Shown here: positions 48,117-54,723 of the stretch, piece after piece | Layout of the letters: each line of letters starts with the position of its first letter | How positions within the stretch are numbered: position 1 is the stretch's first letter | NCBI GenBank assembly: GCA_035529375.1 | Contig: DATKWU010000009.1 | Span: forward strand, 223,124 to 287,123 | DNA: 64,000 nt | Direction: 5' to 3' | From: Patescibacteria group bacterium | GTDB taxonomy: Bacteria; Patescibacteriota; Microgenomatia; PFEM01; JAHIFH01 | The notes under the pieces: generated by a model | Database searches by the model: none | What the model was told of the DNA's origin: nothing | The model's input: only the letters and a program-made list of their open reading frames with translations | Translations under genes and position numbers: made by a program

Positions 48117-49625
48117 ATGAAAGAATTTGTTGAACGTTATGATGCTCGAATCCAAAGATTCCTGGAAATTCTACCTGGGACTTTAGCTTGGACAATTATT
48201 CTTTTCCCTCTTTGGGGCGCTTTTTTTATGCCTCGAATTGTCGCCTACTTTACGGTTGGTTTTTTGGTTTTCTGGTTTTATCGTTCTTTTCAAGCTGCCT
48301 TTCTAGGATTGGCTGGCTATATTAAAATCAAACAGGCAGAAAAAATTAATTGGCACCAGCAATACTTAAAGGATAAAGACCAAGACTCTCTCTCTTGGGA
48401 AGAAATTAAACACCTTGTCATTATTCCTAATTACAATGAATCGGTAGAGAAAATCTCTGAAACTCTTAATCGTCTCGCTAAGCAGAAATATCTTAACAAA
48501 GACCAGATGATTATTGTTCTGGCTATGGAAGCGAGAGCTGAAGGTTCCCGAAAAAGAGCCAGGGAACTAACTAAAAAATTCAAAGGCCAATTTGGTCAAC
48601 TAATTACCTCCATCCATCCTGACGGCATTAAAGGTGAAATTCGAGGCAAAGCCTCTAATGAAGCCTGGGCGGCTAAGTTAGCTAAAAAAATTCTTGTTGA
48701 TAAAAAAGGTTATGATATCGACAAAATCACTATCACCAGCTGTGATGCTGATTCCTGTTTCCATCCTAAATATTTTTCCTCTCTTACTTACGAATTTGCC
48801 CTTAATAAAAAACGCTATCTCCGCTTCTGGCAATCACCAATTGTTTGGCATAATAATTTCTGGCGCGTACCCGCTTTCATTAGAATTGTCGGCACTATGG
48901 GTAATATTACTCATGTCTCTCACCTTTTAGAACCAGAAAGTCTTTATCTTAACTACTCTACCTATTCTGCTTCTCTAAAAATGATCGACAAGGTTGGCTA
49001 TTGGCACACCGACATTATTCCTGAAGACTGGCATATTTTCCTCCAAACTTTTTTTGATAATCGAGGTGAAGTTGAAGTCGAACCTATTTTCCATCCAACC
49101 AGTATTGATGCTCCTGAAGGTACTAGCTATTTTGGTTCTCTAAAAAATCGTTATCTTCAATGCCGACGTCACGCTTGGGGTTGTACTGACATTCCTTTTG
49201 CTATTAAATTAGCTTTGAAACATCCCGAAATTCCGGTTTGGACAAAGGTTTTTCGAATTTACAAACTAGTTGAAACCCATCTCATCTGGTCAACTAACTG
49301 GTTTATTCTGACTTTAGGTGCTTGGTTACCAGCTCTGATTAACCCGGTTTTCAAACAGACTGCTCTAGGTTACAACCTGCCTAGAATTTCTCGGATTATT
49401 TTGACCACTTGTTTGCTTTTCCTTTTCGTCGTTATTGCTCTTGATTTCTCTCTGCGTCCTAAAAAACCCAAAGACTTTCCTCGCTGGAAATCATCCCTCG
49501 AGTACCTTCAGTGGATTTTGATGCCTGTGGCCACTCTATTAATGTCAGTTATTCCTGGACTTCATTCTCAAACCCAATTAATGACCGGAAAAAGACTGGA
49601 ATATTGGGTCACAGAAAAAGTATAG
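48117..49625 (+). CDS. Processive family-2 glycosyltransferase (CesA/HAS-like synthase) with flanking TM helices
   Basis: IPNYNE, DAD, and Q..RHAWG (QxxRW-like) motifs between N- and C-terminal TM bundles. Confidence 0.6.
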   Translation: MKEFVERYDARIQRFLEILPGTLAWTIILFPLWGAFFMPRIVAYFTVGFLVFWFYRSFQAAFLGLAGYIKIKQAEKINWHQQYLKDKDQDSLSWEEIKHLVIIPNYNESVEKISETLNRLAKQKYLNKDQMIIVLAMEARAEGSRKRARELTKKFKGQFGQLITSIHPDGIKGEIRGKASNEAWAAKLAKKILVDKKGYDIDKITITSCDADSCFHPKYFSSLTYEFALNKKRYLRFWQSPIVWHNNFWRVPAFIRIVGTMGNITHVSHLLEPESLYLNYSTYSASLKMIDKVGYWHTDIIPEDWHIFLQTFFDNRGEVEVEPIFHPTSIDAPEGTSYFGSLKNRYLQCRRHAWGCTDIPFAIKLALKHPEIPVWTKVFRIYKLVETHLIWSTNWFILTLGAWLPALINPVFKQTALGYNLPRISRIILTTCLLFLFVVIALDFSLRPKKPKDFPRWKSSLEYLQWILMPVATLLMSVIPGLHSQTQLMTGKRLEYWVTEKV

Positions 49626-49632
49626 TATTATT

Positions 49633-52744: not shown

Positions 52745-53863
52745 ATGACCTGGCCTTTAATTAAAAATCTAATCGGTTTACCCTTAATAACGGCCTTTTT
52801 TATTTCTCTGCTGGCAACTCCCATCGTCATTTTTATTTACCATCGTCTGGGTTGGGTCGATGATCCGACCAAAAGAAAACGAAAACAGGATCTTCATCAA
52901 CAACCTCTACCTCGAGGTGGAGGCATTCCTATTTTTCTGGCTCTTCTAATCAGTTCGCTTATCTTCTTACCGCTTGATAAACACCTTAAAGGAATTCTCC
53001 TTGGTATCACGATTATGGTCATCATGGGTACTCTTGATGATATTTTTGATCTTAATCCCTATCTCCGTTTGATTCTGGGTTTTCTGGCGGCTGGTGCGGT
53101 GGTGGGAGCGGGAATTGGGATTGCTTTTATTACCAATCCGCTTGGGGGTATTATTCAACTTAATCAACCCCAAATTCAATTCCAACTCCTAGACGAAACC
53201 CGTAATTTATGGATTCTTGCCGATTTTCTGGCTCTCTTATGGATTGTTGGTCTAAGTAACATCGTTAATTGGGCTAAAGGTTTTGACGGTCAACTCCCAG
53301 GAATTGTGGTTATTGCGGCTCTAACAATCGCCGTTTTTTCCTTTCGCTATTCAGCTGATATTACTCAGTGGCCGATTGCCATCCTTGCCTCGATTCTCGC
53401 CGGCGCCTATCTTGGTTTTCTACCCTTTAACTTCTATCCCCAAAAGATTATGCCTGGCTATGGGGGTGGCACTTTAGCTGGTTTCATGATTGCTATTCTC
53501 ACTATTCTCGCCACCAGTAAAATTCTGACGGCTATGGTCGTTCTTGGTGTTCCACTGATTGACGCTGGTTATTCTATTGTCCGAAGAATTCTCGCTGGCC
53601 ACTCACCTGTCTGGGGTGATCGAGGTCATCTTCACCACAAACTCCTTGATGAGTGGCATTGGGGAAAAAGAAGAACCGCTCTTTTTTATTGGGGCCTGAC
53701 CGCGATTTTGGGGATTCTCGCTCTCGGCTTGAACAGTCAAGGAAAATTCTATACAATCATCATGTTAGCGATTATTATCGGAATCTTATTTCTGTGGTTC
53801 AACTTTTTATCAACCTTTTTCATTCCATCCGCCCAAGACAAACACTCAAAAACCTTGCCTTAG
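52745..53863 (+). CDS. Polyprenyl-phosphate sugar-1-phosphate transferase, GT4 family (MraY/WecA/TagO-like)
   Basis: DDxxD (MGTLDDIFDLNP), IVNWAKGFDGQLPG (NxxNxxDGxDG-like) and C-terminal HHKLLD-like region; 372 aa, about 10 TM. Confidence 0.65.
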   Translation: MTWPLIKNLIGLPLITAFFISLLATPIVIFIYHRLGWVDDPTKRKRKQDLHQQPLPRGGGIPIFLALLISSLIFLPLDKHLKGILLGITIMVIMGTLDDIFDLNPYLRLILGFLAAGAVVGAGIGIAFITNPLGGIIQLNQPQIQFQLLDETRNLWILADFLALLWIVGLSNIVNWAKGFDGQLPGIVVIAALTIAVFSFRYSADITQWPIAILASILAGAYLGFLPFNFYPQKIMPGYGGGTLAGFMIAILTILATSKILTAMVVLGVPLIDAGYSIVRRILAGHSPVWGDRGHLHHKLLDEWHWGKRRTALFYWGLTAILGILALGLNSQGKFYTIIMLAIIIGILFLWFNFLSTFFIPSAQDKHSKTLP

Positions 53864-54723
53864 CCGCGCCTTTAATCTTCTCGGGACAGTTATTTTTGGC
53901 TGATTCTTTTTGGCTAACTATTAAGTGCATTTTTATTTTTTCCATTCTCACTTCTTCAATTTATCTTTTTAACGACGTCATTGATATCTCTAAAGACAAA
54001 CTTCATCCGATTAAGAAAAAACGCCCGATTGCCAGTGGCAAGATTCCCGTTTTTCTGGCTCTTCTTTTCTTCATTAGTGGTTTTCTTGTTAGTCTTTACC
54101 TAGCTTATTTGGTTAATCCCTTTTTCTTTTTAGCTTGCTTAGTCTACTTTATTCTTCAGATTGGCTATTCTTTAATTTTTAAGAAAATTGTTTTGATTGA
54201 TATTCTGGTTATTGCTGCTGGTTTCATTATTCGAGTCTACGCCGGGGCTCTGGCTCTTAATGTTCATATGAATGTCTGGTTTTTACTCTGTGTTATTTCC
54301 TTGGCTCTGTTTTTAGCGGCCGGAAAAAGAAGGACCGAACTAGCGATTTTAGAACAACAAGCCGCTCAACATCGAAAAACTCTTTCTTTTTATTCACCGC
54401 CTCTTTTGGATTCCTATCTTTCCATTTTTGCTAACTCTGCCTGGATGGCCTATGCTCTTTATACCTTTTTCGTCCCCCCGCCACCAATCACTCAACGGTT
54501 TTCCTTTCTAACTCAACTACCTCTTACTTTCTCGGGTATTAATAAATGGCTAATGATTACCATTCCGGTGGTTATCTTTGGAATTATGAGGTATTTAAAA
54601 ATCATTCACGAAGGTAAACGAGCCGAATCACCAGAAAAGGTTCTTCTGGGCGACAAAACACTATTATTTACTGTTGGTCTTTGGATCTTTTTAGTTGTCG
54701 TGATTATGTATGGAGTTGTTTAG
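53794..54723 (+). CDS. UbiA-family prenyltransferase resembling decaprenyl-phosphate 5-phosphoribosyltransferase (DPPR synthase)
   Basis: NDVIDISKDKLHPIKKKRPIASG matches the NDxxDxxxDxxHPxKxxRPxAxG motif of Rv3806c-type enzymes. GTG start at 53794 chosen; the ORF track begins at 53653 inside the upstream gene. Confidence 0.6.
   Translation: MVQLFINLFHSIRPRQTLKNLALAAPLIFSGQLFLADSFWLTIKCIFIFSILTSSIYLFNDVIDISKDKLHPIKKKRPIASGKIPVFLALLFFISGFLVSLYLAYLVNPFFFLACLVYFILQIGYSLIFKKIVLIDILVIAAGFIIRVYAGALALNVHMNVWFLLCVISLALFLAAGKRRTELAILEQQAAQHRKTLSFYSPPLLDSYLSIFANSAWMAYALYTFFVPPPPITQRFSFLTQLPLTFSGINKWLMITIPVVIFGIMRYLKIIHEGKRAESPEKVLLGDKTLLFTVGLWIFLVVVIMYGVV

Follow-up and report, generated by a model that had tools for sequence, protein, structure and literature searches.

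Six co-directional genes occupy the + strand between positions 48117 and 54723 of a 64,000-nucleotide stretch of DNA from a Patescibacteria group bacterium (GCA_035529375.1, contig DATKWU010000009.1, positions 223,124 to 287,123; the whole stretch is referred to here as the window). They encode a predicted set of envelope-glycan enzymes: a family 2 glycosyltransferase (GT2), two polytopic glycosyltransferases of the GT-C type (GT-C1 and GT-C2), a small membrane protein, a polyprenyl-phosphate N-acetylhexosamine-1-phosphate transferase (PNPT), and a UbiA-family protein resembling the decaprenyl-phosphate 5-phosphoribosyltransferases (DPPRS) or, more broadly, the polyprenyl-phosphate 5-phosphoribosyltransferases (PPPRS). 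On balance, these genes probably represent a core-genome envelope operon of the Microgenomates by which a lipid-linked pentose is made and then attached outside the membrane. Since the linkage of the predicted donor synthase with a GT-C is conserved, polyprenyl-phospho-pentose-dependent extracytoplasmic glycosylation is the best reading of the locus. The open reading frames (ORFs) agree with genes called independently on the 234-kb metagenome contig that contains the window (ENA ERZ27256828 k141_4062333). A preliminary description of this DNA had already named the six as envelope-glycan genes, and its coordinates were confirmed, with the start of the UbiA gene moved to 53794:

48117..49625, + strand: GT2, 502 aa, membrane-integrated, predicted synthase type
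49633..50919, + strand: GT-C1, 428 aa, PMT_2/ArnT-like, accessory member of the operon
50901..52382, + strand: GT-C2, 493 aa, ArnT-like, ending in a small alpha/beta domain; core GT-C partner of the predicted donor synthase
52418..52744, + strand: small membrane protein, 108 aa, three transmembrane (TM) helices
52745..53863, + strand: PNPT, 372 aa, predicted WecA/TagO-like polyprenyl-phosphate HexNAc-1-P transferase
53794..54723, + strand: UbiA, 309 aa, predicted DPPRS/PPPRS-like polyprenyl-phosphate 5-phosphoribosyltransferase

The UbiA protein as predicted donor synthase

The product of the UbiA gene scores 207.2 bits (E value 3e-61) and 192.8 bits (E value 7e-57) with the NCBIfam DPPR-synthase models NF008977 and NF008978, respectively, and at most 37 bits (E value 1e-9 or worse) with the models for MqnP, UbiA, CyoE, DGGGPS, ChlG and EboC. 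In a comparison with all PDB sequences, it aligned end to end with Rv3806c from Mycobacterium tuberculosis (PDB: 8J8J; E value 2e-35), while the next UbiA structure was 4TQ3 (E value 3e-3). The DPPR-synthase-like character proposed in the preliminary description was thus borne out, and no clustering with MenA or archaeal-lipid enzymes was observed. A homologue from Shapirobacteria with 62% identity is labelled 'decaprenyl-phosphate phosphoribosyltransferase' by NCBI, and the DPPRS-like family is large: among 1.84 billion representatives, 1,356 or more clusters (50% identity) reach an E value ≤ 1e-30. The protein consists of 309 residues with no extra domain, and no PRP (HAD) domain is fused to it.

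The contacts of phosphoribosyl pyrophosphate (PRPP) and Mg2+ are known from the cryo-EM structure of Rv3806c (PMC10994848). They include the Mg2+ ligands N73 and D77, the pyrophosphate cluster R22, K87, R90, K143, and Y138, and the residues in contact with the ribose and 5-phosphate, Q135, K28, Y70, and Y157; the phosphoribose-binding sites are not conserved among other UbiA enzymes (PMC10994848). Ten of these 11 contacts are identical in the protein from the window, where R22, K28, Y70, N73, D77, and K87 correspond to R13, K19, Y57, N60, D64, and K74, and R90, Q135, Y138, and K143 to R77, Q122, Y125, and K130. The eleventh, Y157, is replaced with F144, and the same change of Tyr to Phe occurs in some mycobacteria (PMC10994848). 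All 11 positions are invariant across 13 homologues from the candidate phyla radiation (CPR). Judged by these residues, the UbiA protein is equipped to bind PRPP and Mg2+ in the manner of Rv3806c.

The UbiA gene most likely begins at GTG 53794, within the 3' end of the PNPT gene, because its homologues, most of them about 310 aa long, cover 100% of the 309-aa model. This in-frame codon sits just ahead of a conserved IRPRQxxKN helix, and position 53653 is the start assigned mechanically to the ORF. In the public annotation, the gene is called from TTG 53896 to 54723 (275 aa), which removes the region aligned to residues 15–50 of Rv3806c, and the N-terminal helix lost in this way holds the PRPP-binding residues R13 and K19. 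The same shortening is common among the database homologues (268–289 aa), and is probably caused by a true start that lies inside the upstream gene.

The partner enzymes, their conservation and the genes around them

Both polytopic proteins were assigned to the GT-C class, as the preliminary description had supposed. GT-C1 matches the Pfam PMT_2 model at 31.5 bits (gathering cutoff 26.1) and has an invariant W9-G10-D11-E12 sequence near the N-terminus; GT-C2 is not detected by this model. Because sequence and profile searches of the PDB chains found no match for GT-C1 or GT-C2, a comparison of GT-C folds was needed. GT-C2 has a polytopic GT-C fold with an invariant D37/E38 pair after TM1, and its nearest relatives by fold are enzymes which employ polyprenyl- or dolichyl-monophosphate sugar donors. 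ArnT, PIG-M, and ALG3 rank well above AftA, AftB, AftD, and EmbA. By this ranking GT-C2 does not look like an arabinofuranosyltransferase of the Emb/Aft type, and the analogy with those enzymes drawn in the preliminary description was not supported. The best long structural alignment of GT-C2 is with ArnT bound to undecaprenyl phosphate, although the sequence identity is only about 11–12% and no L-Ara4N biosynthesis genes (ArnA-D) are present here. The GT-C fold and the invariant acidic DE pair after TM1 are shared with the ArnT/PMT_2-type enzymes in general (GT83/GT39-like), and some homologues of GT-C2 carry the NCBI name 'ArnT family glycosyltransferase'. When the GT-C1 and GT-C2 families were compared by hhalign, they aligned over 372 columns (probability 92.9%; E value 3.6e-7) with their DE motifs in register, and on this profile evidence the two are predicted to be distant paralogues.

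The GT2 protein matches Pfam Glyco_trans_2_3 (E value 9e-7) and has a GT-A domain preceded by two TM helices and followed by four, a layout shared with hyaluronan synthases (HAS), BcsA and chitin synthases. The IPNYNE, DAD, and QCRRHAW motifs, which the preliminary description had listed as IPNYNE/DAD/QxxRW-like in support of a synthase, are invariant in the family. The invariant residues are P104/E108, D210-x-D212, E303-D304, and Q348-x-x-R351-H-x-W354, and the third motif, QxxRHxW, is a variant of the Q-x-x-R-W acceptor motif. A Foldseek comparison of the AF2 model (pLDDT 88.9) gave as best matches CvHAS of Chlorella virus (PDB: 7SP8; E value 6e-10, with a TM-score of only about 0.49), BcsA, XlHAS1 of Xenopus, and Chs1. 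Going by this model, the GT2 is most plausibly of the HAS/BcsA-like synthase type, and putatively processive.

The PNPT matches PF00953 with 87 bits (E value 1.6e-24). Its designation as GT4 in the preliminary description stands insofar as this is the PNPT family; the label, though, is taken from the Pfam name Glycos_transf_4 and does not denote the CAZy family GT4. Among the NCBIfam models, WecA scores highest (88 bits), followed by archaeal MraY (67) and MraY (45), all of them below the equivalog cutoffs, and WecA and MraY far below. The only matches in the PDB are to MraY (E value 8e-10), and the sequence carries a WecA-like HLHH motif. In the small protein, three hydrophobic helices are accompanied by a loop whose LPP-x-(I/V)P-x-FY...G motif is conserved. 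It has no GtrA, SMR or MATE signature, and only a faint match to DUF1648 was obtained (5/19; E value 0.02), so that a homology to the GtrA or SMR flippases found no support. It is nevertheless a candidate for a flippase or an accessory subunit.

One genome per GTDB species was scanned for relatives of the UbiA protein. A total of 159 were found, and the best 80 loci (45–97% identity) were used for counts, made by BLAST of the window proteins against the ORFs near the UbiA gene in these loci. All 80 belong to CPR of the Microgenomates type. The bacterium of the window is itself a Microgenomates member with low GC content and a small genome, and its nearest relatives with names are Shapirobacteria, Blackburnbacteria, Woesebacteria and Daviesbacteria. 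Many of these metagenome-assembled genomes are titled 'uncultured Gammaproteobacteria', 'Candidatus Bathyarchaeia archaeon', 'Nevskiaceae' or 'Marinimicrobia', apparently mislabels from bulk submissions. The PNPT gene is adjacent to UbiA in 79 of the 80 loci, and GT-C2 lies within 3 kb upstream, on the same strand, in 71. The small protein was found in 64 loci, with a divergent form in a further 12, the GT2 in 59, and GT-C1 in 39. The gene order is always MetRS-(TatD)-GT2-(GT-C1)-GT-C2-small protein-PNPT-UbiA, inside a housekeeping block. Since the same order recurs in 80 genomes at 45–97% identity, the clustering of the six genes is far beyond chance.

Within the operon of the window, GT2 and GT-C1 are separated by 7 nt, GT-C1 and GT-C2 overlap by 19 nt, GT-C2 is followed after 35 nt by the small protein gene, this gene is contiguous with PNPT, and PNPT and UbiA overlap by 70 nt. 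The last overlap is kept in 53/56 loci (median 55 nt), which implies translational coupling. A promoter scan placed the best sigma-70-like match in the region directly upstream of GT2:

48080..48108, + strand: TTTAAA-17-TATAAT with TG; the GT2 ATG lies 9 nt downstream

The match totals of the promoter and terminator scan were no higher than in shuffled sequence, and only this site stands out; it is suggestive, weakly, of an operon that begins at GT2.

We regard GT-C1 as an accessory member because, among the 55 loci which have both GT2 and GT-C2, its slot holds GT-C1 in just 28; it is empty in 17, and is taken by a PTPS_related protein in three and an extended short-chain dehydrogenase/reductase (SDR) in five. 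In loci of the Blackburnbacteria type, a polytopic PTPS_related protein (PF10131) of about 575 aa occupies the slot (L032:5386-7110, L034:5405-7135, L037:5352-7061), which suggests that outer-face transferases are interchangeable there. The extended SDR occurs in 11 loci, some of them of the Woesebacteria type, between GT2 and GT-C2 on the - strand (L054:6210-7154, L066:2286-3314). It is absent from the window and is the only recurrent sugar-modifying neighbour. This SDR could be a lipid-pentose epimerase similar to ORF13 of Citrobacter (see below), or an NDP-sugar enzyme which feeds the GT2. As the NCBIfam models for NDP-sugar dehydratases, epimerases and decarboxylases match about equally, all below their cutoffs, a Citrobacter-like epimerase of ribofuranose (Ribf) to xylofuranose (Xylf) is no more than one candidate.

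The other genes that accompany UbiA include those for an M23 peptidase (55/80), MetRS (54/80), and GroEL (49/80). The remaining families recurrent within 10 kb, RmuC, a Trp-repressor-like protein, a solute-binding protein, UvrD, VanW, HhH-GPD, DprA, ComM, ABC-F, TsaD, and NUDIX, are all housekeeping. The most constant of the outside neighbours is a gene adjacent to UbiA on the opposite strand in 74/80 loci:

54724..55728, - strand: convergent gene for a surface protein with PEGA and SH3 domains and an acidic linker rich in Ser and Pro

Its product matches PEGA (E value 4e-17) and SH3_3 (E value 1.4e-12) in Pfam. It is a conserved neighbour, and its membership in the pathway is uncertain. The linker was considered as a conserved O-glycosylation acceptor, and was set aside since it is Ser/Thr/Pro-rich in only 12 of 74 homologues. 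In the window, several predicted surface proteins, at 27798-31420 (+) and 54724-55728 (-), have Ser/Pro/Thr-rich linkers, e.g., TPSPTPSPSVSPSPSVSPS and SPSPSPSPESSPKASPSP, which are similar to linkers that carry O-glycans and might serve PMT-like GT-Cs as acceptors.

The preliminary description had also tentatively assigned to the module two ORFs just upstream, which the census does not support. The 'kinase-like' ORF at 46516-47301 has no match in Pfam or NCBIfam and is retained in 2/80 loci, and the EEP-family protein (47298-48098) in 1/80. The EEP protein and a HAD hydrolase (57689-58327), likewise kept in 1/80 loci, were both considered, and rejected, as the missing 5-phosphoribose phosphatase. 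Further upstream, by 13–17 kb, a region of the - strand (31422-34968) encodes an 823-aa double GT-C fusion with GT87 at residues 102–319 and PMT/PMT_2/PMT_4TMC at 424–807, whose gene is overlapped by that of a LytR-CpsA-Psr (LCP) glycopolymer ligase (33865-34968). The two look like a second envelope-glycan module; as members of the operon's own module they were rejected, the LCP ligase being present in 0/80 loci and the fusion in 2/80.

Several additional envelope-related genes were noted. A 267-aa Bac_transf protein (15540-16343, +; E value 5e-17) is a PglC/WbaP-like monotopic phosphoglycosyl transferase, i.e., a second and unrelated glycan-initiating type. Two membrane proteins of the VTT/DedA family are encoded near the cluster (56984-57649, -; 61075-61758, -) and are kept in 4/80 loci by BLAST; DedA proteins are implicated in the recycling and flipping of polyprenyl phosphate. 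A glycoside hydrolase anchored in the membrane by its N-terminus is encoded at 21913-23352 (+; E value 1.6e-34) and belongs to GH39, a family which includes beta-xylosidases. Two tandem ORFs of the FemAB-like peptidyltransferase type, recognized from reading of the sequence (36786-38654, +), together with MurJ (24214-25896) and a sortase encoded immediately before the left end of the window (L086:17692-18408), fit a monoderm envelope containing peptidoglycan.

Proposed pathway and alternative explanations

In the proposed pathway, the UbiA enzyme would move 5-phosphoribose from PRPP to polyprenyl phosphate, probably of the undecaprenyl type, at the cytoplasmic face of the membrane. A separate, unlinked phosphatase would then strip the 5-phosphate from polyprenyl-P-ribose-5-P, and the resulting lipid-linked ribofuranose would be flipped across the membrane, perhaps by the small 3-TM protein. 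Outside, the ArnT-like GT-C2, along with GT-C1 where present, would add the pentofuranose, most likely ribofuranose, to a glycan or glycoprotein of the envelope. The WecA-like PNPT and the HAS/BcsA-like GT2 would most plausibly build the acceptor, which could be a glycan primed with polyprenyl-PP-HexNAc, a secreted polysaccharide backbone, or both. Here we infer the lipid carrier, the acceptor and the identity of the sugar, as well as which GT-C takes up the donor and what the GT2, PNPT and small protein do. The polyprenyl-phospho-pentose pathway of the preliminary description is therefore retained in its logic of a donor synthase and GT-Cs, and not in its implication of arabinose, as no DprE1 or DprE2 is linked. 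Neither a DprE1-like FAD oxidase nor DprE2 (SDR) was found in the 64-kb window and about 9 kb past each end (about 81 kb of contig), and neither is among the families within 10 kb of UbiA in the 80 relatives. Because no epimerase is linked in 80 genomes, the sugar is more likely to be ribofuranose than arabinofuranose.

A number of points weigh against this pathway. All of its members are known from sequence and predicted structure alone. The UbiA protein falls narrowly under the NCBIfam equivalog cutoffs (207.2 against 234 bits for NF008977, and 192.8 against 207 bits for NF008978), and for this reason we claim only that it belongs to the DPPRS/PPPRS clade and not that it is the decaprenyl-specific equivalog. 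A likeness in GT-C fold does not tell the donor sugar, and the two GT-Cs could use another lipid-linked sugar. Synthases of the HAS type normally need no polyprenyl primer and no GT-C. No PAP2 or HAD phosphatase, and no flippase of the MATE, GtrA or SMR families, is present in the operon or recurrent near UbiA in the 80 loci (within 10 kb for the phosphatases); the inspection of the genome itself for DprE1/DprE2, Prs, and PAP2 covered about 81 kb. Finally, it is from synteny alone that we infer a functional coupling of all six genes.

The most conventional alternative is that the UbiA protein is an aromatic or lipid prenyltransferase, such as MenA, UbiA, DGGGP synthase or heme O synthase. It does have a generic Pfam UbiA match, and some sources call its homologues '4-hydroxybenzoate polyprenyltransferase', but those subfamilies score at least 170 bits below DPPRS and the phosphoribose-binding residues specific to Rv3806c are kept, which leaves this explanation effectively refuted, with almost no probability. 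It is unlikely as well that the sugar is arabinofuranose, i.e., that polyprenyl-P-ribose is epimerised by homologues of DprE1/DprE2 encoded elsewhere, beyond the 81 kb or so of this genome that were searched, and that the GT-Cs are arabinofuranosyltransferases. The likeness of the UbiA protein to Rv3806c would agree with such a route, as would the precedent of Pseudomonas aeruginosa, in which a DPPRS homologue acts with DprE1/DprE2 and a GT-C to add D-Araf; in Pseudomonas, however, the DprE1/DprE2 genes adjoin the DPPRS gene, whereas neither was detected in the window, its flanks or the 80 neighbourhoods, and GT-C2 ranks the Aft and Emb enzymes well under ArnT, PIG-M, and ALG3.

The six genes might also be co-located with no common pathway, the GT-Cs using another donor (e.g., a polyprenyl-P-hexose with which to O-glycosylate proteins or extend glycolipids), the GT2 secreting its product independently, and the PPPRS product feeding an unlinked transferase. 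The GT-C folds indeed match many Dol-P-Man-dependent enzymes, GT-C1 matches PMT_2, nearby surface proteins have the Ser/Pro-rich linkers typical of O-glycosylated proteins, and synteny in a housekeeping block may persist for non-functional reasons. Set against this are the tight operon, in which genes overlap or abut across 45–97% identity, the operon's lack of a GtrB/DPM1-type polyprenyl-P-hexose synthase, with a GT2 that is synthase-like, and a documented three-component precedent which pairs exactly these two enzyme classes; co-location thus appears improbable. Very unlikely is a pathway with no dephosphorylation, in which the 5-phosphoribosyl group would be flipped and transferred intact to leave an anionic ribose-5-phosphate on a wall glycan, as a functional analogue of teichoic acid. 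This would accord with a 309-aa UbiA protein which has no fused PRP (HAD) domain, with HAD and EEP neighbours kept in one locus each, and with a neighbourhood census in which no PAP2 family recurs. The lack of a linked phosphatase is, however, weak evidence, and we know of no precedent for a GT-C that transfers a phosphorylated sugar. Furthermore, a D18A mutant of the phosphatase domain in Citrobacter still yielded some dephosphorylated product (PMC11127046).

Beyond the polyprenyl-phospho-pentose pathway itself, we speculate, as an unlikely extension, that the operon makes a major, class-wide wall glycopolymer of the Microgenomates, with a backbone that is synthase-made or PNPT-primed, ribofuranose or anionic ribose-5-phosphate added outside by ArnT-like GT-Cs, the 3-TM protein in place of a GtrA or MATE flippase, and no dedicated phosphatase. 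If true, no pathway for an envelope polymer would have been defined in CPR before this one, which would mirror the logic of mycobacterial arabinogalactan in a minimal form with a configuration of its own.

Relation to known pentofuranose systems and significance

The preliminary description had held that a pathway of this kind is not normally expected outside Actinobacteria. This view is outdated, in light of the O-antigens of Citrobacter (PMC11127046), the pilin of P. aeruginosa (bioRxiv 10.1101/2020.04.19.049825), the number of DPPRS-like clusters and the homologue from Shapirobacteria named by NCBI. Biochemical work on Citrobacter youngae showed that a set of three components adds alpha-ribofuranose to its O antigen (Kelly et al. 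PNAS 2024, PMC11127046). In the O1/O2 loci, ORF15 joins a UbiA-type PPPRS and a HAD phosphatase in one protein, the flippase (ORF14) is of the MATE family, and the GT-C (ORF12) is ArnT-like and the founder of family GT136; a GalE-like SDR (ORF13) turns the donor into Xylf, and homologues of DprE1/E2 accompany glycans containing Araf (PMC11127046). Candidate pentofuranose systems have been reported across Gram-negatives, Gram-positives, and a phage (PMC11127046). As in Citrobacter, the Microgenomates operon has the gene for a UbiA-family PRPP:polyprenyl-phosphate phosphoribosyltransferase beside that for an ArnT-like GT-C, an extracytoplasmic transfer of pentofuranose from a polyprenyl-monophosphate donor would take place, and Ribf would be the default sugar in the absence of an epimerase. 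In contrast, the Microgenomates operon has neither a HAD phosphatase, whether fused or linked, nor a MATE flippase, with a conserved small 3-TM protein instead, and it adds a PNPT whose gene overlaps that of the PPPRS and a HAS-like GT2. Moreover, the Citrobacter locus is a serotype-variable locus for O-antigen modification, while that of the Microgenomates is a class-wide operon of the core genome.

The arabinosylation of pilin in P. aeruginosa employs the DPPRS PsPA7_6246, the GtrA-like protein 6247, DprE1/DprE2 (6248/6249), and the GT-C TfpW, and its authors proposed that the GT-C itself may flip the lipid-linked sugar (bioRxiv 10.1101/2020.04.19.049825). This group IV pilin system, also outside Actinobacteria, likewise has a DPPRS homologue, a small membrane protein and a GT-C encoded together. 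It differs in the adjacent DprE1/DprE2 and in its GtrA-family protein; the Microgenomates locus has no epimerases, and its small protein has no homology to GtrA. The mycobacterial pathway of DPA and arabinan synthesis comprises Rv3806c, the phosphatase Rv3807c, DprE1/DprE2, the GtrA-like Rv3789, and AftA-D/EmbA-C, with WecA and GlfT2 for the galactan acceptor. Here the homology of the donor synthase extends over its full length, with the PRPP-contact positions kept, and the list of parts runs parallel, with a putative WecA-type initiator, a putative GT2 polymerase, GT-Cs and a DPPRS-like enzyme. However, the Microgenomates locus shows no DprE1/DprE2 and no PAP2 phosphatase over the 81 kb or so of contig and the neighbourhoods of the 80 relatives, its GT2 is predicted to be of the membrane-embedded synthase type rather than GlfT2-like, and decaprenyl phosphate is unlikely to be the lipid carrier.

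We found no literature linking DPPRS, DprE1 or a pentofuranose pathway to CPR/Patescibacteria. Mycobacterium, Pseudomonas and Citrobacter already provide examples of the mechanism, so that only the lineage and the gene set are new. What differs is how the operon is built: it belongs to the core genome, lacks any recognisable phosphatase, flippase or epimerase, and is joined to a PNPT and a GT2 of predicted synthase type. The result is thus an extension and not a surprise, as the enzymes are homologous to those of described systems and hints of the pathway can already be read in public annotation.

A large part of bacterial diversity falls within the CPR/Patescibacteria, whose surface mediates attachment to host bacteria; to our knowledge, the chemistry of that surface is essentially uncharacterised. 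The operon leads to the testable prediction that the Microgenomates display an envelope glycan containing pentofuranose, probably ribofuranose. The putative donor synthase retains the PRPP-binding positions of a validated tuberculosis drug target. In toto, these findings would extend the paradigm of pentofuranose glycosylation to a lineage with reduced genomes, and indicate in the small 3-TM protein a candidate for a new accessory or flippase protein.

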